A stretch of 64,000 bases of DNA from Klebsiella phage EI, in the sequence record MN106245.1; one strand, given 5' to 3'. This document shows, one piece after another, positions 9,951 through 59,424 of the stretch. Every line of letters starts with the position of its first letter. Positions within the stretch are counted from its first letter, which is position 1. The notes under the pieces are model-generated. The model was not told the origin of the DNA, did no database searches, and saw only the letters and a program-made list of their open reading frames with translations. The position numbers and the translations under genes are program-made.

Positions 9951-10141
9951 TATTGTTTATGGCTTCCGTGCTCAGCGATTTTGCGGTCGCCTAAGAAGAT
10001 TTTGCACAGGCAGTTATCGTTGACTTCCGCGTACTGCTGGGCTACCCAGTGGACGTCAGGCCCGAAGATAGTTTTTTCGAAGCTGGAATGGTAGTGTTCG
10101 CCATCTATAGTGTACCACAGCATGATTAAGAACTTGTGCAT
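9950..10141 (-). CDS. hypothetical protein, 63 aa
   Basis: ORF track. Confidence 0.3.
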   Translation of the reverse strand: MHKFLIMLWYTIDGEHYHSSFEKTIFGPDVHWVAQQYAEVNDNCLCKIFLGDRKIAEHGSHKQ

Positions 10142-10209: not shown

Positions 10210-10812
10210 TTACCAGCTGATAAGTTCCAGATGAAGAATAGTATAATCCGTCGTGTTTGTATCTGGATTAGATTTATCTTCAATACGTAATATGCGGTAC
10301 GCTGCTTCCTTCGGAAGCATAAACTCGCACTCACCTTGAACCATATCTAACTTATCCTCGCGTTGATCTTCAGTTGACACCAAACCCATGTACTCTTCAT
10401 CAGGAGCACCAAGAAGAATATTAGTGATATCTTCTTGATAATTGTATGCCCACGGGCAGTTCTGTATGCTCAGAATCAGATTTGAATCATAATGCCATTT
10501 AGAAGCAAACTGCTTGGCAGTGGAGAAATCGGAGCTGAAGCTTGTAACACGTCCTAAAGTAAATGTATCACCTTCAGCTAGATTATAAAGTTTTTGCGCT
10601 TCAATCAGTGTCACCCCACGATACAATTCTGATGGTACCGTAGTAGACATGTGCTTACGTACTATTGGGTTCAGCCTGGAATGAATAAGTTCTTCATTCT
10701 TATCATTCAAACAAAGCCACAGAGTACTTTGCTCCATATCTGTGAATTTTTCTTCCACTTTAGACTGGATACTTTGACGAACTTTTTCTTCTGAACTGAT
10801 TTGGATAAGCAT
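10210..10812 (-). CDS. modA: ModA/ModB-like mono-ADP-ribosyltransferase, 200 aa
   Basis: R-S-ExE signature: ELYRG (Arg), SFSSDF (S-x-S), QGECEF (E-x-E); same length as T4 ModA; correct locus between dda and soc. Confidence 0.65.
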   Translation of the reverse strand: MLIQISSEEKVRQSIQSKVEEKFTDMEQSTLWLCLNDKNEELIHSRLNPIVRKHMSTTVPSELYRGVTLIEAQKLYNLAEGDTFTLGRVTSFSSDFSTAKQFASKWHYDSNLILSIQNCPWAYNYQEDITNILLGAPDEEYMGLVSTEDQREDKLDMVQGECEFMLPKEAAYRILRIEDKSNPDTNTTDYTILHLELISW

Positions 10813-14973: not shown

Positions 14974-15989
14974 ACTTTAGCATAACGACTTAACCTCATT
15001 TTAGCCATTAGCCCAGAAGCAATATTCGTATTCAGATATTTGAGTATTTCTTCAGGTGTAGCCCCTTCGTCCTTAATCATATCATTGATATCTTTAGATG
15101 CCCAAGGAGCATTGTCCCAGAACACGACACGTTCGCCAGCTTCTACCAACCTCTTCATACGTTTAATGGTATCCTCATGTCGAGGTTCATTATCCATAAT
15201 CCAAGCACGGTTCTCTTTAAAAGGAACCGTGTTCAAATCCATAGACCCGCCTGTAATAGCAATAGCATTATGTACAAACAATGAATCTATTGGTCCTTCC
15301 ATGACCCATACGAGTCTTGACTCATCCACTGTATCGAGCCCGTAGATTTTAGTTGCGTGTTCGTGTGCTTTGATTGTGATGTATTTCTGCGGAGCATCTT
15401 TTCGAAGTGCACGTCCTTGAAATGACTCGATGTCTCCTCGGGCGTTGAAGATTGGGATAACCAAGCGCGGTTCGCTCTTTTCATCTTTATATGTTCCTGG
15501 ATTAACTGAGTTAACAAGAGCAGGCCATTCCATAGTAAACCACAAACGTTTCCAGTTTACTTCAGGAATGCAGCGGGCCTTAACATACTTAACAATAGGG
15601 TGATCGGCTGGTAATCTATCCAGACGCTCACAATTTGGCAACTTCTCAATCACAGGCATCTTTGCTTTAATCTTTTCAGAGATAGATGGGGCCTTTTTCT
15701 CCCTATACATGTTCTCTTTACGACGTTCTAGCAAGAATTCACGGTACAGCATTTCATCGGTTTCTTTAAGGAACTTGGTGAACCAAGCCTTGTAGTCACA
15801 GTTGAAACATCCCACGCGTAGTCCACCCTCTACTTCAAAGCACCAAAAACGAGCTTTCATCTGGTTCTTCTGAGAGTCCCCGCATATAGGACAACGACAG
15901 TTTAATTTAAAAGTACTTCCTGGGAGTTTTCGGTAACGAGGCAGAACAGACAATGCCCGTTCTGCAAATTCATAGTCAACAAAGTTCAT
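14970..15989 (-). CDS. 61: DNA primase gp61 (zinc-binding + TOPRIM), 339 aa
   Basis: CRCPICGDS..CFNCDY zinc motif, PRLVIPIF..FQGRAL, colinear with recalled T4 gp61. Confidence 0.85.
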   Translation of the reverse strand: MNFVDYEFAERALSVLPRYRKLPGSTFKLNCRCPICGDSQKNQMKARFWCFEVEGGLRVGCFNCDYKAWFTKFLKETDEMLYREFLLERRKENMYREKKAPSISEKIKAKMPVIEKLPNCERLDRLPADHPIVKYVKARCIPEVNWKRLWFTMEWPALVNSVNPGTYKDEKSEPRLVIPIFNARGDIESFQGRALRKDAPQKYITIKAHEHATKIYGLDTVDESRLVWVMEGPIDSLFVHNAIAITGGSMDLNTVPFKENRAWIMDNEPRHEDTIKRMKRLVEAGERVVFWDNAPWASKDINDMIKDEGATPEEILKYLNTNIASGLMAKMRLSRYAKV

Positions 15990-16023
15990 ATTTACCTCTT
16001 GGAGTTATTATATCACTCTTCAG

Positions 16024-16180
16024 AAGGCTTATCTTTGCGCTTTTTCTGAGAAAGGGTTTCAGGGCCCTTATTGACAACATCACCAGTTGTTGTGCCGGAA
16101 GCGATGTTGGTTGGAGAGCCGCCAGAATCGCCGGCGACCATTTCGGATAAAGATTGTTTGTACTTTTCAAGTAAAGTCAT
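16024..16180 (-). CDS. hypothetical small protein ~57 aa (MTLLEKYKQSLSEMVAGDSGGSP...)
   Basis: ATG 16180 behind strong SD AAGGAGAAG; preferred over track ORF 15976..16170 which lacks SD. Confidence 0.3.
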
Positions 16181-16204
16181 GTAGCTTCTCCTTAAATGTT
16201 TTAT

Positions 16205-16495
16205 TTATAGCCCGATAACGTCGCAGTGGATTCCTTCCCAAGAATTCTCAAATTCCTGCCGTTGAATTATCTGTTCCCAGTCCTTTCGGAAAGCCCGGCG
16301 CATTTTTCTCAGTTGTCGCTTTGTAGGTTTACAGACAAATGTCTCAGACAGAACGTGTCCAAAGACAACTTTATCTGTGCTTCCACGGTCTAATACTACT
16401 TCCCAGTGAGCGTCAGACATAATAGGACGCTTAGTGTAGAGGCCAGAAATACAAGCCTTGTGGTACATAATATAAGTTCTCATAATCCAATCCAC
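16205..16495 (-). CDS. hypothetical protein, ~92-96 aa
   Basis: ORF track. Confidence 0.4.
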   Translation of the reverse strand: MDWIMRTYIMYHKACISGLYTKRPIMSDAHWEVVLDRGSTDKVVFGHVLSETFVCKPTKRQLRKMRRAFRKDWEQIIQRQEFENSWEGIHCDVIGL

Positions 16496-16761
16496 TCTAA
16501 AGTTTCTTTAGCACTAAGGTTTTCACAGAAAAGATTAGTTGCGGCTACAACTATCTCCCCGTTATTGATGTTTTTGATCTGGGTTAATTGATTTTTATCA
16601 GCGGCTTTTTCTAACTCTTTTATAACTACACCTCGTAGCACAGACATATCAGAAGATATGGCTAACTCGCACAGCGGAGAACTGTAGTCAGCTTTGGCAA
16701 AGGCCGGCTGTGCGCCACAGGCAGAAAGAGCGAAAATTAAAGAAAGAATAGCTTTTTTCAT
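16480..16761 (-). CDS. sp: spackle-like periplasmic protein (superinfection exclusion; inhibitor of gp5 lysozyme), 93 aa
   Basis: MKKAILSLIFALSACGAQPAFA signal peptide and size resemble recalled T4 Sp (61.3); adjacent to gene 61 as in T4. Confidence 0.5.
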   Translation of the reverse strand: MKKAILSLIFALSACGAQPAFAKADYSSPLCELAISSDMSVLRGVVIKELEKAADKNQLTQIKNINNGEIVVAATNLFCENLSAKETLEWIGL

Positions 16762-16783
16762 TACATTTTCCTCAAAATTAAGC

Positions 16784-17158
16784 TTATTCTACATCTAAAA
16801 GAGGTACGTCTGCACGAGAGTCCCGATCAAGGTTTCCGTCCTGGTCTGCCCACCATCCACAGACACGAACTTCAGAGTTCTCGTGTTTATACAGCTGCCG
16901 AACAAACACAGCTTTAGATTTCCCTTTTACTTTAACAGGAAAACCGTAGCGAATTTCTGGGCGGGTAAGATAATGGTAAGCACACTCGTACCCATCTAAC
17001 ACAAAGCCATTAGCCGAAAGACCTAAATTAATGAAAGCTCTTCCATTATACTTTTCTAAGTACTTGTTAGGAACTTTTTCTTGTTCACTAACATTATAAA
17101 GCCCGCCTTTTACTAAAGTAGCATCTTTATACCCAGGATAAGAATTTTCGTAGTTCAT
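16784..17158 (-). CDS. hypothetical protein, 124 aa
   Basis: ORF track; promoter cassette P5 upstream. Confidence 0.45.
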   Translation of the reverse strand: MNYENSYPGYKDATLVKGGLYNVSEQEKVPNKYLEKYNGRAFINLGLSANGFVLDGYECAYHYLTRPEIRYGFPVKVKGKSKAVFVRQLYKHENSEVRVCGWWADQDGNLDRDSRADVPLLDVE

Positions 17159-17177
17159 GTCAGTTCCTCACTTTGTT

Positions 17178-17218
17178 TGTGTAGAAGCATAGTATCATGC
17201 TCCTACACAGATGTAAAC
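17178..17218 (-). promoter_or_regulatory. early promoter/stem-loop cassette P5 (IR GTGTAGAAGCAT/ATGCTCCTACAC)
   Basis: minus: GTTTACA-tctg-TGTAGGAGCATG-ATACTAT-GCTTCTACAC. Confidence 0.6.
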
Positions 17219-18651
17219 TAGAATTTTAAATCTTCTGCCAGCTTATCAAGGTCAGCTCGTGATGAAACCTTTTTCTGTTGATTATCAGCGGCTTGCTTCA
17301 TCTGAGTGCCTTGGGCTTCACGCTGGGTATTAGTGTGAGACGGTCCACCTTCTTGGGCAATTTCTACCCACCGTTGGTTGCCTTTGCGAACGCCCATATT
17401 GAACTTGTTGTAGATGTTTTTATCACCATAACGAGATTTAATCTGTTTGATTAACTGTTGCTTCATCTCGGCTAGTTCAGGCGTTTCTATTACGGCCAGC
17501 ATAAAGTCTGCTGTAGCAGGTAGGCCTGCTGATTCTGCAACATCTGACATGTCAATATCACTCGAGTCCCAAGCACTACGACCGGTCTGAGCCGCTGACC
17601 ATACAGCTGTCTCGGTTTCAACTGCTAAACCACGAAGTTCTTCAGCAATTGCTTTAACTAAGGTATAGCTGTTTTCAGTGTACTGCTTAATACGGCAAGA
17701 AGCACAGATACCTAAGTAGTCGATAATGATGATTGTCGGGACGAAGTTCTTTTTAAGTTTCAGTTCATTTAATAACGCGCGGAAGTTATTGGCTGAAGCA
17801 CCACCAGTAGGGTATTGCTTGATAATCAAACGACCTAGAGTGGAGGTCTTACGCCATCTTTCCATCTTGGCTTTATATTCAGAGTATGATACACAGCCAT
17901 CATCAATATCATCAAGTGATACATCAAGAAGGTTAGCATCGATACGCTTAGCACATACTTCTTCGGCCATCTCCATGGAGATATAAAGGACATTATGACC
18001 AGTCTGAAGATAATCTGCAGCCAATGAACAAAGACCAAGAGACTTACCTACGTTGACCCCTGCCATCAAAATATTCAATGTGCCCGTTTCAACACCACCT
18101 TTGGTAATTTTGTTCAGGATACCCAGTTTAAATGGAATCTTACGAGATTTGTTTTGGTAAGCCAACCAACGAGCTTCATAGTCATCCATCCAGTCATGGC
18201 CTATATAACTATCGAAAGATACTGATAAGGCTTCACGCATGATGTCTGGAATGGCACCTAAACCAGGCAGACGTTTATCACGTTGCTTTTCGTCTAATTG
18301 GTCATTAGCCTGGATTTCAATAATTCGAGAAGTAGCATTATACATTGCCTTTTCTTGAACATATTTTTCTGTCTCTTTGGTGAGCCAGTTTAAATCTTCA
18401 GGAGCATCTGTAAGTTTAGATAGAAGTTCTTTAGCACCGCTCAATTCCACATCCGACATAGAAGACTTGTCTAATGCGATATTAACCGCAGTCTTCGACG
18501 GGATTCCATTATATTCATTAACATGGTGATGAATAGTCTTAAACAAAGTAAGAGCTGGGCCTCGTTCAAAATATTCATCTTTCATGTAAGGCCATACTTT
18601 ATTAAAGAAAGCCTGATTGAAAAGCAAATTAGCTAAAATTGTTTCTACCAC
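17218..18651 (-). CDS. 41: replicative DNA helicase gp41 (DnaB family), 477 aa
   Basis: NILMAGVNVGKSLG Walker A, IIIIDYLG, DnaB-like N-domain; T4 length match. Confidence 0.9.
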   Translation of the reverse strand: MVETILANLLFNQAFFNKVWPYMKDEYFERGPALTLFKTIHHHVNEYNGIPSKTAVNIALDKSSMSDVELSGAKELLSKLTDAPEDLNWLTKETEKYVQEKAMYNATSRIIEIQANDQLDEKQRDKRLPGLGAIPDIMREALSVSFDSYIGHDWMDDYEARWLAYQNKSRKIPFKLGILNKITKGGVETGTLNILMAGVNVGKSLGLCSLAADYLQTGHNVLYISMEMAEEVCAKRIDANLLDVSLDDIDDGCVSYSEYKAKMERWRKTSTLGRLIIKQYPTGGASANNFRALLNELKLKKNFVPTIIIIDYLGICASCRIKQYTENSYTLVKAIAEELRGLAVETETAVWSAAQTGRSAWDSSDIDMSDVAESAGLPATADFMLAVIETPELAEMKQQLIKQIKSRYGDKNIYNKFNMGVRKGNQRWVEIAQEGGPSHTNTQREAQGTQMKQAADNQQKKVSSRADLDKLAEDLKF

Positions 18652-52310: not shown

Positions 52311-52892
52311 TTATTTTCCAGTCACTAATTCGAACCAATGTTTACGGCAAAGAGAAACATATCTGTCTTCACCACCTAATTCAATTTTATCACCTTCTAG
52401 TACAGCATTACCTTCTTCATCAATACGCGCTACCATTGTTGCTTTACGACCGCAATGACAAACACCTTTAAGTTCTACCAACTTATCGGCAACTGCTAAT
52501 AAAGTTTCTGATCCTTCAAATAGATTACCTTGGAAATCTGTACGAAGGCCGTAGGCCATCACAGGAACGTTGTATTGGTCTACAATTTTACACAGTTCTA
52601 TCACGTGGTGCCGAGTTAAGAACTGGGCTTCATCGACAAATACACAGTGGATGTCACGCTGCGTTTGGGCCCATTTAAAGAATTCGAATATATCCATATC
52701 AGGAGTAATGATATTCGCTTCCTGTCTAAGCCCGAGTCTAGATACAACTTCAGTAGATGAATCACGGCCATCAACGCCAGGCTTAAGAATCAATGTACCC
52801 ATACCACGTTCTTTGTAGTTATGAGCGGCCGTCAACAGGTTGGCGGACTTACCAGCGTTCATTGCTGCGTAGTTAAAGTACAATTGAGCCAT
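52311..52892 (-). CDS. tk: thymidine kinase, 193 aa
   Basis: MNAGKSANLL P-loop, VDEAQF, C-terminal CxCG..C zinc ribbon; same length as T4 Tk. Confidence 0.85.
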   Translation of the reverse strand: MAQLYFNYAAMNAGKSANLLTAAHNYKERGMGTLILKPGVDGRDSSTEVVSRLGLRQEANIITPDMDIFEFFKWAQTQRDIHCVFVDEAQFLTRHHVIELCKIVDQYNVPVMAYGLRTDFQGNLFEGSETLLAVADKLVELKGVCHCGRKATMVARIDEEGNAVLEGDKIELGGEDRYVSLCRKHWFELVTGK

Positions 52893-53066: not shown

Positions 53067-53230
53067 AATAAAATCCTTCAAAGCGTTCCAGGCATTAGCG
53101 TGGTCAAGACCTTCATCGTCGCAGTCCCAACCACCATCTGCTAGCCAGGTATAAGCATAATGAGCACCAACGTACTCATCGATTAAACGAAACATCTCGG
53201 CCTTTTGTTCAGTAGTCACCTTCGATGCCA
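53054..53230 (-). CDS. hypothetical small acidic protein ~58 aa (MASKVTTEQKAEMFRLIDEY...)
   Basis: fills gap 53071-53208; below track cutoff. Confidence 0.3.
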
Positions 53231-53409
53231 TCCATACTTAAAACTTGTAGACGTTGTTTATCTAAAGCTATAATAGATTGGATATATGCATCATCTGTAC
53301 CGATGATAGAAGCAGTACCAACCTTTTTAGCTAAACGGATTAGTTCATCGATGTTTTCGATGATATACTCTTTTTCTTCTTCAGACATATTCATTATGAA
53401 CCGTCCCAA
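53209..53409 (-). CDS. hypothetical protein, 66 aa
   Basis: ORF track. Confidence 0.35.
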   Translation of the reverse strand: MGRFIMNMSEEEKEYIIENIDELIRLAKKVGTASIIGTDDAYIQSIIALDKQRLQVLSMDGIEGDY

Positions 53410-53858
53410 TCTACTACAATAATGTTAGTATGGTCGGTGAACATATTAATGATTGTTTCGATTTTAGCCCAATCACCACCAGCTATACCGGCTCCAATCC
53501 GAGGAATATAAACTGTTAGAGGAGTGATTTGATTTTCAGATATCATATCAAGACGTCTGAAGGCGTTCAACAAGGCCCCGTAATCTAGATTCCGACCAGG
53601 ATTATATTGGGTATATAAATTGAAGCAATACGCCTTTCCTTCAGGCTGGCTATTTGCTGCTATAGTAATAAGGCCGAGTTTTTCTCGGTCGCCAAGCTCA
53701 GTTTCACGGATATCTGCTTCTAATACTTGTGGAAAGGCTTTAGCAAGCTGACCAGCTATACCAGCGCCCATTTGGTGATGGCAATTACAGCCATGCGCGA
53801 TATGATGCCCGGTTTTAAACAGTTCTACGATATTGCCGGAGATGTATTGGGTTATCAT
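53394..53858 (-). CDS. macro-domain protein (ADP-ribose binding / O-acetyl-ADP-ribose deacetylase or ADP-ribosylhydrolase-like), 154 aa
   Basis: GNIVELFKTGHHIAHGCNCHHQMGAGIAGQ..IGAGIAGGDW classic macro motifs. Confidence 0.6.
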   Translation of the reverse strand: MITQYISGNIVELFKTGHHIAHGCNCHHQMGAGIAGQLAKAFPQVLEADIRETELGDREKLGLITIAANSQPEGKAYCFNLYTQYNPGRNLDYGALLNAFRRLDMISENQITPLTVYIPRIGAGIAGGDWAKIETIINMFTDHTNIIVVDWDGS

Positions 53859-54205
53859 TTAGAGTTTAAACCTCTATTGTATGAGTCGACTAAACGGTCG
53901 ACCATAGATTCGCATATTTCTTTATACTTGACATCAGATGGAATACATTCTGTTGTAAGCAGCCTATTTTCATAACGATCCGAAAGTGAATTTTCACGGA
54001 ATCGAGATCTCGAGTCCATCTGACCGTCTTTAAAAGCCATAATAACTTGGTTAGAGAACTCTGTTATGCATTGAACGTTTTTTGGCGAACAGTAGTCTTT
54101 AGCGGTCCTGTGTGCGTATTCGAGGATGCTGGATTTATCGGTACTCTGTGCCGCATTAACTCCCAAACATAAAAATAATCCAAGGGCTAAAGATAATTTT
54201 TTCAT
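53855..54205 (-). CDS. secreted protein, 116 aa
   Basis: Signal peptide MKKLSLALGLFLCLGVNAAQS. Confidence 0.4.
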   Translation of the reverse strand: MKKLSLALGLFLCLGVNAAQSTDKSSILEYAHRTAKDYCSPKNVQCITEFSNQVIMAFKDGQMDSRSRFRENSLSDRYENRLLTTECIPSDVKYKEICESMVDRLVDSYNRGLNSK

Positions 54206-54207
54206 AT

Positions 54208-54747
54208 CTATCCACTAATTAAAATTTCATGCGATTTAAGATAATTCGCCTTTTCTATAACTTGGGAGGCGTATTTATTACCTGCCTTTACGTTCCACCC
54301 CGCATTATAACTAGAGATAGCTTTACGAATATCTCCGTTATGTATATTTAACCAATAACTCAGTTCAATATACGCCCAGCGGGCCGAATGCTTACGATCT
54401 GATAGCATTCTTTTGATTTCTGTATCAGAAAGATTCCAGTTATTTTGTGCAGCCCTATTGCGAACTGTAGGCAAGTAATTTTGAAACACTCCATAAGCGT
54501 GGTGTTTCTTTTTATTCTTACTGGTGTTAATGCCTGCACTTGACTCTTGCCAAGCTATCGCGGCCATAATGTAGCCAAGTCCTTTCTTATCACGAGTCTC
54601 GTGAGTTTTATACTTACCGTCCTTAGTGAATTGTTCCCCGAATTGATATGCGTATTGCAAATTATCGAGTTGGACACTACTGAAGTGGTGCTCAGCACTA
54701 AAAACAGATGCAGAAAGCATCGTAAGTGCCAGGATCGCTTTTTTCAT
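54208..54747 (-). CDS. periplasmic SLT-domain lytic transglycosylase-like protein, 179 aa
   Basis: Signal peptide; AIAWQESS (catalytic E-S), YGVFQ, SSYNAGW motifs of family-1 lytic transglycosylases. Confidence 0.5.
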   Translation of the reverse strand: MKKAILALTMLSASVFSAEHHFSSVQLDNLQYAYQFGEQFTKDGKYKTHETRDKKGLGYIMAAIAWQESSAGINTSKNKKKHHAYGVFQNYLPTVRNRAAQNNWNLSDTEIKRMLSDRKHSARWAYIELSYWLNIHNGDIRKAISSYNAGWNVKAGNKYASQVIEKANYLKSHEILISG

Positions 54748-54756
54748 GTTTTCCTC

Positions 54757-55215
54757 TTAGAGATTAATAACGTATGTGCTGATCTTACCTTTTAAACGTT
54801 TATTGTTAACAAAAGCCATTCGGCATTTCAATGAATACCAACGACCTGGAATATGGTTATCCACAGTCATACCCAGCCATAAGGTGCCATCAGTGACTTC
54901 AAGTCTCTGAGGACGATACACCACATCAGGATCGATATCAGCAGTATCTATAGGCAGAGGTGGTAATTTCAAGAATTCTGAGATCTCTTCGACATGAAGA
55001 TGAATCTTTTTGAAGAGGGCGAATACATACTCTTCATCGATATCGCGTTGGATAGCACGGTCCAACAGATGATTAGAGTATTTAATAAAGAAAGGTTGAA
55101 TTCCAGCCTTGATAGCGGCAGACTTCACAGAAGAATTGATATCTCTGAAAGTAGTTTCAAAGACACGACGGAGCTTATTGCGGCGGATGAAAACGCTTGG
55201 ATCGATGTTAGTCAT
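54757..55215 (-). CDS. regB: RegB endoribonuclease, 152 aa
   Basis: VFIRRNKLRR.FE..FR.IN..YS.HLLDRAIQR.IDE.YVF.LF.KI.. matches recalled T4 RegB. Confidence 0.8.
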   Translation of the reverse strand: MTNIDPSVFIRRNKLRRVFETTFRDINSSVKSAAIKAGIQPFFIKYSNHLLDRAIQRDIDEEYVFALFKKIHLHVEEISEFLKLPPLPIDTADIDPDVVYRPQRLEVTDGTLWLGMTVDNHIPGRWYSLKCRMAFVNNKRLKGKISTYVINL

Positions 55216-55234: not shown

Positions 55235-55275
55235 GGTGTAGAAGTACTATACCATACTCCTACACACTTGTAAAC
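55235..55275 (-). promoter_or_regulatory. early promoter/stem-loop cassette P13 (IR GTGTAGAAGTA/TACTCCTACAC) upstream of regB
   Basis: GTTTAC revcomp 55270-55275. Confidence 0.55.
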
Positions 55276-55571
55276 TAGTACTTTTCTTCAGGCCGGAACA
55301 CTGCTCGGCAGGCCCACATAGAAGCTTCTTTAAGACGGTCTTTAGCGAGCACTATAGCACTTAATGCCTGAACATCAGAATTAAAATCTTCATCGCTTTG
55401 ACCTGGGACATGTTCACGCAGTTCGTCTTCGATGGCTGAGAAGATCAGTCCAAGACGGACTTCAGCATCTTTGATGGCATTAACACGGTTAATCTTTTCG
55501 GCGGTGTGCGGTTTGTAACCTTTGATATCTTCAACGGCCATAAGGAATTTCCTCATCTGTTTCTTTGTCAT
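55275..55571 (-). CDS. hypothetical protein, 98 aa
   Basis: ORF track. Confidence 0.4.
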   Translation of the reverse strand: MTKKQMRKFLMAVEDIKGYKPHTAEKINRVNAIKDAEVRLGLIFSAIEDELREHVPGQSDEDFNSDVQALSAIVLAKDRLKEASMWACRAVFRPEEKY

Positions 55572-55848
55572 ATTCGACTAGCTCGATTTCTGACGAGTAG
55601 CCACGAGTGCCAAGGTATGAAGTTGCTTCTTCATACTTCATGGTTTCTGGGTTCCAGTCGTCGGCCCAGGCTTCCATCAGCCCTTGCTCACCACTGTTAC
55701 TGAACCAATCACAAAAGGCTTTAATAGCCTTATCTGAACCTTTAATAATAACCTGGGCCATGTTAACCACCGGTTGTGTAGCGGATAGAAATGTCCAACT
55801 TGATAGGCTTTTTAAACAATTCGATAGCTCGAATAAGTTTACGATCAT
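55531..55848 (-). CDS. hypothetical acidic protein, 105 aa
   Basis: ORF track. Confidence 0.4.
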   Translation of the reverse strand: MIVNLFELSNCLKSLSSWTFLSATQPVVNMAQVIIKGSDKAIKAFCDWFSNSGEQGLMEAWADDWNPETMKYEEATSYLGTRGYSSEIELVEYDKETDEEIPYGR

Positions 55849-55999
55849 AACAAATCAGACTACGAGATACTAGACCACAAAGTGGCCCAGTAACAAATAT
55901 GATTTCAATATCTGGCTTAGAATTCAGCTCTTCAATAGTCGCTTCTGTCTGAATAACAGACCGTTCAAAAGGACCATCCATAAACATATAACGCGTCAT
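55763..55999 (-). CDS. hypothetical protein, 78 aa
   Basis: ORF track. Confidence 0.35.
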   Translation of the reverse strand: MTRYMFMDGPFERSVIQTEATIEELNSKPDIEIIFVTGPLCGLVSRSLICYDRKLIRAIELFKKPIKLDISIRYTTGG

Positions 56000-58951: not shown

Positions 58952-58979
58952 CTCCTATCTATTGATAGGAGTATTTATC
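58952..58979 (-). promoter_or_regulatory. gene e translational-control hairpin (CTCCTATC-aata-GATAGGAG sequestering SD) with adjacent late-promoter-like GATAAATA
   Basis: Perfect 8-bp palindrome 58952-58971; SD AGGAGG in 3' arm; TATTTATC (minus GATAAATA) at 58972-58979. Confidence 0.5.
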
Positions 58980-59424
58980 ATGCTACATTAGGATACAACT
59001 TCTGCATAATACGGTAAAGAGACAGCCCCATTACATGTTTCCACATCTCAGGTTTAATGCATGCGAATGCATCCATTTCAGGAATAGAAGACCCATCTTC
59101 AAACGTGTGATAAGCGGTGCATTTGCAATTCCTGAAGCTCTCGATGTCCACGAAGCGCATATAACTAAACAGATGAATATTCTTATTCCGAGCGTACTCG
59201 TGCTCGCCTAGGTCATACAGGGCTTCAGGATTAAAGTCTGTGAATCCAGTTTCTTCTTGGCATTCACGGATTGCTGCTTCTTTAGGAGATTCGCCCGGTT
59301 CTACGTGACCTTTAGGAATGTCCCATCGAGAACTTCCGTCTTTACGCTTAATGCCGGTCATACGAGCCATGAACAGACGATGGTCTTTAGTAAAGAACAT
59401 AATCCCGGCGCTTAATTCTTTCAT
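58978..59424 (-). CDS. nudE: Nudix hydrolase NudE, 148 aa
   Basis: Nudix box GHVEPGESPKEAAIRECQEETG. Confidence 0.8.
   Translation of the reverse strand: MKELSAGIMFFTKDHRLFMARMTGIKRKDGSSRWDIPKGHVEPGESPKEAAIRECQEETGFTDFNPEALYDLGEHEYARNKNIHLFSYMRFVDIESFRNCKCTAYHTFEDGSSIPEMDAFACIKPEMWKHVMGLSLYRIMQKLYPNVA

Follow-up and report, generated by a model that had tools for sequence, protein, structure and literature searches.

A stand-alone macrodomain is encoded by a Klebsiella T4-like phage (Marfavirus), and the gene is the orthologue of T4 tk.4 (adfM). Its product is most likely an enzyme that counters DarTG2 defence by removing ADP-ribose from thymidine, a reading to which we assign a probability of about 0.68. 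The window, i.e., the whole stretch of 64,000 nt that was analysed, is 99% identical to the phages PWKp16, P545 and F48, and the same gene is annotated as "macro domain-containing protein" or "phosphatase" in genomes of this type. Near-identical GenBank genomes already carry the annotation, and the T4 counterpart, catalogued for more than 20 years, now has a defence phenotype; the gene is therefore real but ordinary and adds little that is new.

Fold, orthology and gene neighbourhood

The 154-aa ORF encodes a genuine macrodomain, far beyond what chance would produce, and its fold is established in this analysis. The original prediction of a macro-domain ORF holds: the reading frame is present with both glycine-rich motifs (GCNCHHQMGAGIAGQ, residues 23-37, and IGAGIAGGDW, residues 121-130), and Pfam PF01661 (Macro) matches the protein with E=3e-8 and 34.1 bits (curated gathering cut-off 22), in an alignment that spans profile positions 2-117 of 118. 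In addition, PHROG 335 is matched with E=6e-60. The AF2 model (mean pLDDT 92.8, pTM 0.88) contains six strands and six helices and displays the three-layer alpha/beta macro fold, which is supported by Foldseek: numerous macrodomains of solved structure are matched at probability 1.00, with TM of 0.67-0.79, including TARG1 (E=3e-9), Poa1p (1e-8), Thermus aquaticus (Taq) DarG (2e-7), SCO6735 (3e-7), BT1257 (7e-7) and Mycobacterium tuberculosis (Mtb) DarG (2e-6). A profile of the phage family searched against PDB sequences retrieves BT1257 (8e-18), TARG1 (3e-15), SCO6735 (2e-14), Poa1p (4e-14) and Mtb DarG (2e-10). In PADLOC and NCBIfam, the protein matches DarG models only, and weakly (27 and 26.5 bits). 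A homology search placing the protein in a non-macro fold had been named as the refuting outcome; the search was run, and Pfam, AF2 and Foldseek all return macro and exclude another fold. The comparison with DarG that had been proposed was likewise fruitful, DarG/TARG1-type enzymes being the closest relatives.

Three plus-strand ORFs that overlap the gene (53225-53422, 53620-53751 and 53727-53975) were treated as shadow ORFs; the annotations of related phages contain no CDS at these positions. A terminator-like match within the gene (53688..53674, minus strand), with a 5-bp stem and located in coding sequence, was taken as a chance occurrence.

Orthology with T4 tk.4 is established by similarity and by gene order. 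T4 Tk.4 (NP_049723, annotated "phosphatase; contains A1pp phosphatase motif") and the macro protein, with lengths of 155 and 154 aa, share 51% identity over 152 aa (E=5e-61), and a tblastn search with Tk.4 matches a single region of the window, the macro gene. The order in the window (tk, three small ORFs, macro, vs-like, SLT/vs.1-like, regB) places the gene in the same slot as in T4 (tk, tk.1-3, tk.4, vs, vs.1, regB), while tblastn detected no similarity between the three small ORFs and T4 tk.1-tk.3. H22, N25, Q84 and the PRIGAGI loop are identical in the two proteins; half of the residues differ. The earlier suggestion that T4 has no macro-domain gene is therefore mistaken, and with it falls the premise that made the gene look unusual. 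Phage records with a relative of the protein number 2795, among them phages of Pseudomonas, Vibrio, Acinetobacter, Aeromonas, Listeria and Bacillus.

The gene lies in a tightly packed minus-strand operon and overlaps its neighbours at both ends (Table 1): the TGA stop of the vs-like gene overlaps its ATG start (ATGA), and its own stop overlaps the start of the 61-aa ORF downstream (TAATG), which PWKp16 and kv_tblp2 both list as a CDS. The Pfam SLT match of the vs.1-like product (E=2e-4, 21.2 bits) falls barely below the cut-off of 21.3. Upstream of regB, a sigma-70-like consensus match could serve as an early promoter of the regB-vs.1-vs-macro genes; the region holds 24 promoter-like sites, compared with 18.1 +/- 4.1 in shuffled sequences, which is not a clear excess. 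The macro protein is probably produced early in infection, from the translationally coupled regB-vs.1-vs-tk.4 run.

Table 1. Positions in the window of the macro gene, its conserved motifs, its neighbours and the Mod-type gene.
Feature	Position	Strand	Evidence or remark
Sigma-70-like promoter match TTTACA-17-TATAGT, TG before -10	55246..55274	minus	10/12 consensus; in the gap upstream of regB
regB endoribonuclease gene, first of the packed run	54757..55215	minus	Pfam REGB_T4 E=1e-68
vs.1-like gene, SLT (lytic transglycosylase) domain	54208..54747	minus	T4 Vs.1 69% identity, E=3e-80
vs-like gene (valyl-tRNA synthetase modifier), upstream of macro	53855..54205	minus	PHROG 1256 and 38498; T4 Vs tblastn 46% identity, E=1e-27
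Macrodomain gene, 154 aa, T4 tk.4 (adfM) orthologue	53394..53858	minus	ATG-to-stop ORF
Codons H22-G23-C24-N25-C26	53781..53795	minus	H22, G23, N25, C26 invariant (40-sequence family alignment)
Codons M30-G-A-G-I-A-G36, first glycine-rich loop	53751..53771	minus	G31, G33 conserved in phage family, BT1257, TARG1 and DarG
Codon Gln84	53607..53609	minus	Invariant in family; position of TARG1 K84, DarG K80, SCO6735 Gln85
Codons P119-RIGAGIAGGD-W130, second glycine-rich loop	53469..53504	minus	P119, G122, G124, W130 invariant
Small ORF, 61 aa from ATG, tk.3 position, downstream of macro	53209..53394	minus	PHROG 3452 E=8e-25
Thymidine kinase gene tk, anchor of the gene order shared with T4	52311..52892	minus	Pfam TK E=3e-53
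Mod-type ADP-ribosyltransferase gene, 200 aa	10210..10812	minus	PHROG 832 E=9e-41

Active-site residues and proposed chemistry

The active-site residues are established by alignment, and Q84, N25 and G124 are invariant across 40 homologues. H22 aligns with a His of Poa1p, TARG1, SCO6735 and BT1257, where the Poa1p position follows the "H23A" title of 6lfs with our own numbering offset. N25 is the conserved active-site Asn, equivalent to N27 of SCO6735, to N22 of Taq DarG and to the residue replaced in the N23A variant of PhiKZ gp104; in SCO6735, N27 plays a role in catalysis and the N27S variant is almost inactive (PMC9411070). Two glycine-rich loops are present, MGAGIAG (30-36) and IGAGIAGG (121-128), whose residues G31, G33, G122 and G124 are conserved between the phage proteins, TARG1 and DarG. 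In macrodomains, a GxG loop that follows the second conserved strand contributes to the cleft in which ADP-ribose is bound (PMC9503650), and in our reading the first loop may be equated with it. The aligned counterpart of the second loop in SCO6735 and BT1257 is PRIGCGLAGGxW, and from this alignment G124 is taken to match G128 of SCO6735.

Q84, in the motif LYTQ, aligns with the LITK motif of TARG1, FPTK of DarG and IGQ of SCO6735 and BT1257 (MAFFT and hhalign in the case of DarG, with the PDB-derived sequences of Mtb 5M3I, 149 aa, and of Taq DarG). The aligned phage macro family thus lacks the catalytic Lys of DarG and TARG1, in whose place the invariant Gln84 stands, and Asp125 of TARG1 is also absent, its position being occupied by A126. 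In SCO6735, the substitution Q85A abolishes activity (PMC9411070). We tentatively assign Q84, N25 and G124 to the positions of SCO6735 Q85, N27 and G128.

A further feature is the mobile loop, which in the macro protein and all aligned phage homologues is six residues shorter than in BT1257 and about as long as in DarG and TARG1; P0110, alone among these homologues, ends the loop with a small additional insertion. The mobile loop of SCO6735 has five more residues than those of DarG and TARG1, is said to mark a subclass, and carries Lys89 and Lys94, the authors linking it to DNA binding (PMC9411070). Since its loop is shorter than those of BT1257 and SCO6735, the macro protein is no straightforward copy of SCO6735.

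The mechanism proposed for the phage protein is the following: host DarT2 of a DarTG2-type toxin-antitoxin system would ADP-ribosylate thymidines of single-stranded phage DNA, whereby replication would be blocked, and the macrodomain, once bound to the ADP-ribose, would split the thymine-ribose bond by hydrolysis, restoring normal DNA and releasing free ADP-ribose. With Asn25 holding it in place, Gln84 would orient the distal ribose so that water can attack, no catalytic lysine being involved; the chemistry is expected to be SCO6735-like rather than DarG- or TARG1-like.

Probable removal of DarT2-made ADP-ribose and its alternatives

The invariant Gln84, as in SCO6735, and the phenotype of T4 tk.4 together make the removal of DarT2-made ADP-ribose the most likely function. 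T4 that lacks adfA and adfN is still resistant to DarTG2, and a further factor was therefore expected (PMC11825919). According to a 2025 preprint on one DarTG2 system in E. coli, a transposon screen of T4 on a DarTG2 host returned tk.4, named adfM, as the sole significant gene, and a clean tk.4 knockout makes T4 sensitive to DarTG2; the preprint says that enzymatic removal "seems likely" (bioRxiv 10.1101/2025.11.20.689424). Countering DarT-type DNA ADP-ribosylation was among the options listed in the original prediction, and these genetics provide such a role for the T4 orthologue. Two macrodomains offer biochemical precedents: on thymidine-ADPr DNA, SCO6735 is a faster hydrolase than DarG or TARG1, and it rescues DarT toxicity (PMC9411070); PhiKZ gp104 strips off in vitro the ADP-ribose that DarT2 has placed on DNA, and it also protects the phage (PMC13309987). 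On these grounds, we infer that the macro protein and T4 Tk.4 hydrolyse ADP-ribosylated DNA. The net charge of the protein (pI 5.6) is uninformative about a DNA substrate because PhiKZ gp104, which is proven to act on DNA, has a pI of 5.1. A literature search for DarTG in Klebsiella yielded nothing decisive. T4-like Klebsiella phages under consideration for therapy probably come equipped with a means of countering DarTG2 defence.

Protection against DarT2, or another ADP-ribosyltransferase, might instead be achieved mainly by binding, with the toxin sequestered or the adduct shielded and little or no hydrolysis. The canonical catalytic Lys is indeed missing in the macro protein, and DarT is inhibited in vitro even by the catalytically dead variants SCO6735 Q85A, which acts by binding and has the strongest effect, DarG K80A and TARG1 K84A (PMC9411070); part of the protection could thus be non-enzymatic. 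However, none of the aligned phage homologues departs from the SCO6735-type hydrolysis residues (Gln, Asn and the Gly loop), which argues for selection on catalysis, and the protein is a bare macrodomain that lacks the DarT-binding C-terminal domain of DarG; a mainly binding role is accordingly regarded as quite improbable.

The protein could also be a hydrolase of small ADP-ribose derivatives, either a Poa1p-like ADP-ribose-1''-phosphate phosphatase or an O-acetyl-ADP-ribose deacetylase, that clears soluble NAD-derived toxins or immune signals instead of repairing DNA. Its best single-sequence PDB matches are structures of yeast Poa1p (6LFQ-6LFU; E=2e-7), found through the N-terminal IAHGCNC / LIHSCNC stretch, and the two share an H-x-C-N-C motif, which includes the His mutated in 6lfs, and a G-I-x-G loop. 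T4 Tk.4 and many relatives are annotated as "phosphatase / A1pp motif" or "O-acetyl-ADP-ribose deacetylase", and in some Vibrio phages the homologue adjoins a ribose-phosphate pyrophosphokinase gene. These annotations, however, are homology transfers and not tests, and the family profile ranks BT1257, TARG1 and SCO6735 above Poa1p. The similarity to Poa1p, which is longer (180-residue chains) and acts on a small molecule as an ADP-ribose-1''-phosphate phosphatase, is concentrated in the N-terminal 55 residues, and the top PDB match is its F152A mutant. Among the Poa1p residues named in the PDB titles, H23 is kept as H22, but S30 and F152 (6lft, 6lfu) align with Q29 and A126 in our own mapping and numbering offset. 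In addition, sensitivity to DarTG2 is the sole known genetic phenotype of the orthologue tk.4. A small-molecule role in place of DNA repair is therefore considered unlikely. Macrodomains are often promiscuous, and a small-molecule side activity would thus not exclude a role on DNA.

The headline of the original prediction had connected the macro gene with the phage's own ADP-ribosyltransferase, encoded by a gene that it called ModA-like. A Mod-type transferase is indeed present, yet the label is imprecise because the product is nearer to ModB (35% identity, E=9e-31) than to ModA (31%, E=2e-13), and its LYRG, SFSS and ECEF motifs align with those of ModB. Reversal or tuning of the phage's own protein, or RNA-linked, ADP-ribosylation by Alt/Mod-type transferases would draw on the presence of this gene in the same genome and on the ability of SCO6735 and TARG1 to strip also Glu/Asp-linked ADP-ribose from proteins (PMC9411070). 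Against it, the macro family extends over 2795 phage records from many unrelated groups, compared with 1019 records for relatives of the Mod-like transferase (mainly enterobacterial among the organism names listed), so that most macro carriers lack a detectable Mod homologue, and the two genes lie 43 kb apart with no operon link. T4 Alt, ModA and ModB are arginine-specific R-S-EXE enzymes, and their product, Arg-ADP-ribose, is removed by ARH/DraG-type hydrolases and is not known to be removed by macrodomains of this class. The proposed link is thus not supported, a function in self-modification being very improbable.

Comparison with known macrodomains

Human TARG1/OARD1 (4J5R/4J5S), the top Foldseek match and the second-ranked of the family-profile matches given above, also cleaves thymidine-ADPr DNA (PMC9411070); it differs from the phage protein in its catalytic dyad, Lys84/Asp125, which corresponds to Gln84/Ala126. 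The DarG macrodomains of T. aquaticus (5M31/5M3E) and M. tuberculosis (5M3I) share the fold (TM about 0.75, hhalign 97%), the Asn, both Gly-rich loops and, presumably, the substrate. Unlike the phage protein, DarG has its catalytic Lys80 (FPTK) where Gln84 stands, as well as a C-terminal DarT-binding domain (154 aa compared with 329-338 positions in DarG models). Scores of 26.5 bits for NCBIfam NF048014 (cut-off 250) and 27.1 bits for PADLOC PDLC02990, together with the missing Lys80 and the missing second domain, rule out DarG proper. No darT gene adjoins the macro gene, whose neighbours are vs and the small PHROG 3452 ORF.

The gp104 "AdfM" of PhiKZ (chimalliviruses; Cell Rep 2026, PMC13309987) is likewise a stand-alone phage macrodomain directed against DarTG2 and bears the same name. 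It belongs to another subfamily, in which the DarG lysine is kept (FPTK, read from the construct sequence), and it scores 133-138 bits with DarG models (132.9 with PDLC02990) compared with 27 bits for the macro protein. A tblastn search of gp104 against the window gave no match, and hhalign reached just 94.6% probability over a partial alignment; close kinship is thereby ruled out. The T4-type and PhiKZ-type proteins look like independent recruitments, and the name AdfM now covers two unrelated macrodomain subfamilies. As a more speculative and rather doubtful extension, the T4-type macrodomains (PHROG 335) might constitute a distinct, phage-adapted third version of thymidine-ADP-ribose hydrolase, in which an SCO6735-like Gln site is combined with a DarG/TARG1-like short loop and which would have been recruited independently of the Lys-type, DarG-like AdfM of nucleus-forming jumbo phages. 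If so, their substrate range may be broader than or different from that of DarG and include ADP-ribosylated RNA bases, for instance, or ADP-ribose linked to Glu/Asp of proteins, and the published T4 phenotype would be just one part of their role.

Since the T4-type family lacks the DarG lysine, its chemistry should be modelled on SCO6735 and not on DarG, a point that was not met in the accessible text of either AdfM account (bioRxiv 10.1101/2025.11.20.689424; PMC13309987). SCO6735 and BT1257, the latter deposited in the PDB as a conserved hypothetical protein, are cellular proteins and not phage counter-defence genes, and their identity to the macro protein is about 23-26%. The features of this Gln-type ALC1-like subgroup are found in part: the phage proteins lack the extended mobile loop bearing Lys89 and Lys94, but they share with both enzymes the Gln at the position of TARG1 K84 and DarG K80, the conserved Asn and the PRIG(A/C)G(I/L)AGGxW loop.

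Gene neighbourhood, relatives and distribution

The macro gene is a member of a tightly packed minus-strand run, since its ATG shares bases with the stop codon of the upstream gene (ATGA) and its stop codon overlaps the start of the next gene (TAATG); with both overlaps, the run is probably also translationally coupled. The plus strand opposite the gene holds short ORFs only, and the annotations of relatives place no CDS there. The macro gene would probably be expressed early, along with regB, vs.1 and vs; the gap ahead of regB holds a good sigma-70-like consensus match. In a transposon study, vs was the strongest conditionally essential gene of T4 in minimal medium (bioRxiv 10.1101/2025.11.20.689424). 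Upstream of the vs.3-like gene, two listed ORFs overlap; their starts are probably placed too far upstream, because the CDSs annotated in relatives are shorter and do not overlap.

The 6 kb around the gene are 99% identical to Klebsiella phages PWKp16 (classified as Marfavirus F48), vB_Kpn_P545, vB_Kpn_F48 and others, whose records label the product 'macro domain-containing protein', 'Appr-1-p processing domain protein' or 'phosphatase'. The gene had been flagged on the premise that no macro-domain gene is known in T4, but T4 carries tk.4 (NP_049723; 'phosphatase; contains A1pp phosphatase motif'), and the two proteins are 51% identical over 152 residues with zero gaps (E=5e-61). T4 and the window share the order tk, three small ORFs, macro gene, vs, vs.1 (SLT domain) and regB; on sequence and conserved position, the macro gene is the orthologue of tk.4. 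Relatives were detected by tblastn in 2795 of 50,697 phage records; among them are T4-like phages from many hosts, Felixounavirus and phi92-like phages, others that infect Vibrio, Pseudomonas and Acinetobacter, and also Listeria and Bacillus phages. In a published survey, 41% of myoviruses had macro domains (PMC9503650). The gene is an ordinary T4-like gene, already catalogued. In Vibrio phages Achelous, Ceto, Hades and VPMCC14 the homologue adjoins a ribose-phosphate pyrophosphokinase gene, which hints at a link to NAD/ADP-ribose salvage, not DNA repair, in that lineage.

Features of the window considered in this analysis
Feature	Position	Strand	Remarks
Dmd-like short match	9971..10078	-	47% identical to T4 Dmd; flanked by srd and the mod gene
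Mod-type ADP-ribosyltransferase	10210..10812	-	PHROG 832, E=9e-41
Macrodomain gene	53394..53858	-	ATG-to-stop ORF, 154 aa
vs (valyl-tRNA synthetase modifier) orthologue	53855..54205	-	overlaps macro gene start
Sigma-70-like match TTTACA-17-TATAGT	55274..55246	-	gap upstream of regB; consensus match only
Overlapping ORFs	55531..55848 and 55763..55999	-	upstream of vs.3-like gene
Putative Nudix hydrolase ORF	58978..59424	-	148 aa; downstream of lysozyme gene

Macrodomain fold and active site

The window protein is a macrodomain. Pfam PF01661 (Macro) matches it end to end (34.1 bits, E=3e-8; curated cut-off 22), PHROG 335 matches with E=6e-60, and the two motifs cited in the original prediction are found at residues 23-37 and 121-130. 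An AlphaFold2 model computed from an alignment of 40 homologues is confident (pTM 0.88, mean pLDDT 92.8), and its best solved-structure matches are all macrodomains of one class: human TARG1 (3e-9) and the yeast ADP-ribose-1''-phosphate phosphatase Poa1p (1e-8), then Thermus DarG (2e-7), SCO6735 (3e-7), BT1257 (7e-7) and M. tuberculosis DarG (2e-6). A non-macro fold is ruled out by the Pfam match, the model and these structures. Searching the PDB with a family profile placed BT1257 on top (8e-18), followed by TARG1 (3e-15), SCO6735 (2e-14), Poa1p (4e-14) and DarG proteins (2e-10 and 3e-8). The top hit of a single-sequence search was the Poa1p mutant F152A (6LFU), not the wild type; its engineered alanine reproduces the G-I-A-G loop of the phage family, so that a mutant entry can inflate the ranking.

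Sequences from the PDB searches were aligned with the window protein, with T4 Tk.4 and with further homologues from phages. The catalytic lysine of TARG1 (Lys84) and Thermus DarG (Lys80, FPTK) is replaced by Gln84 (LYTQ), which is invariant (40/40 family members), and TARG1 Asp125 by Ala126; with glutamine in place of lysine, the active site is not of the DarG or TARG1 type. This arrangement has published precedent in SCO6735, where Gln85 corresponds to Gln84 (BT1257 also has Gln), and Asn27 and Gly128, numbered from aligned motifs, to Asn25 and Gly124. In SCO6735, activity is abolished by Q85A and nearly abolished by N27S, Asn27 keeping Gln85 in place; the enzyme clears DNA of thymidine-linked ADP-ribose more rapidly than DarG or TARG1 do, and it rescues cells from DarT (PMC9411070). 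As aligned, one trait sets the phage proteins apart from the SCO6735 subgroup: their 'mobile loop' after the glutamine is 6 residues shorter than that of BT1257 and close to DarG and TARG1 in length. The SCO6735 authors linked this loop to DNA handling (PMC9411070).

Proposed counter-defence role and alternatives

DarTG2 is a toxin-antitoxin defence whose toxin, DarT2, puts ADP-ribose on thymidines. T4 without adfA and the NADAR gene adfN (30.3) stayed DarTG2-resistant (PMC11825919), which implied a further factor, and the tk.4 knockout fits. As described in a preprint, transposon sequencing of T4 was performed on a DarTG2-expressing host, tk.4 alone came out as a significant hit, a clean tk.4 knockout was DarTG2-sensitive, the gene was renamed adfM (anti-DarT factor Macrodomain), and enzymatic ADP-ribose removal from DNA 'seems likely' to its authors (bioRxiv 10.1101/2025.11.20.689424). 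The macrodomain assignment of the original prediction stands, and its suggestion of DarT counter-defence matches T4 genetics. No homologue of T4 gp61.2 (AdfA, anti-DarT1 factor) was detected by tblastn anywhere in the window, which covers the primase-to-helicase interval (gene 61 to gene 41, about 15000..17500) that holds AdfA in T4; a relative's annotation lists small ORFs only there.

We consider it probable (roughly 0.68) that the macrodomain counters DarT2 by enzymatic removal of its adducts from phage DNA. The protein would bind ADP-ribose set by host DarT2 on thymidines of single-stranded phage DNA, and water would hydrolyse the bond, the distal ribose being positioned by Gln84 and Asn25 as modelled for SCO6735; free ADP-ribose would be released and replication could go on. 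At the position of the 148-aa ORF, PWKp16 annotates a Nudix hydrolase and T4 presumably has e.1/NudE; this putative ADP-ribose-cleaving enzyme could dispose of the ADP-ribose freed.

Protection chiefly through binding of DarT or the adduct is conceivable, as dead mutants of SCO6735, DarG and TARG1 inhibit DarT in vitro (PMC9411070), but the invariant catalytic residues argue for hydrolysis and make this an improbable account. A small-molecule hydrolase of the Poa1p kind, slightly less improbable though still unlikely, would agree with the N-terminal motif, which matches Poa1p, and with the traditional 'phosphatase' label; however, such labels are putative, and the window protein appears to lack two of the residues that Poa1p structures have probed.

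The gene had also been tied to the phage's own 'ModA-like' transferase. That product is indeed Mod-type, yet nearer ModB (35%, E=9e-31) than ModA (31%, E=2e-13), and its LYRG, SFSS and ECEF motifs align with ModB counterparts; the mod slot has one annotated gene in a close relative, whereas T4 has modA and modB in tandem. The neighbouring match resembles Dmd, the antitoxin against RnlA/LsoA; in T4, genes 61.4 and 41 flank dmd, which suggests that the gene has moved. No tie was found between the macro and mod genes, and reversal of the phage's own ADP-ribosylation is the weakest alternative and very unlikely: 43 kb separate the genes, and Mod-like genes occur in 1019 records (with mainly enterobacterial phages among the organisms listed) against 2795 for the macro family. 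Moreover, T4 transferases modify arginine, and arginine-linked ADP-ribose is, to our knowledge, removed by ARH/DraG-type enzymes, outside the reach of this macrodomain class.

Two proteins named AdfM

PhiKZ gp104 was independently named AdfM in a 2026 Cell Reports article, which showed that it takes DarT2-made ADP-ribose off DNA in vitro (PMC13309987). Its sequence, translated from the construct sequence in that article, keeps the DarG lysine (MFPTKDNW), whereas T4 Tk.4 is SCO6735-like with Gln; DarG family models score gp104 at 133-138 bits, against 26-36 bits for the window protein and T4 Tk.4, and tblastn with gp104 gave no match in the window. Judged by these comparisons, AdfM is a name shared by two macrodomain subfamilies that differ in key residues and were probably recruited by phages separately. 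It is worth passing on that AdfM proteins of the T4 type have Gln, as SCO6735 does, where DarG has its lysine.
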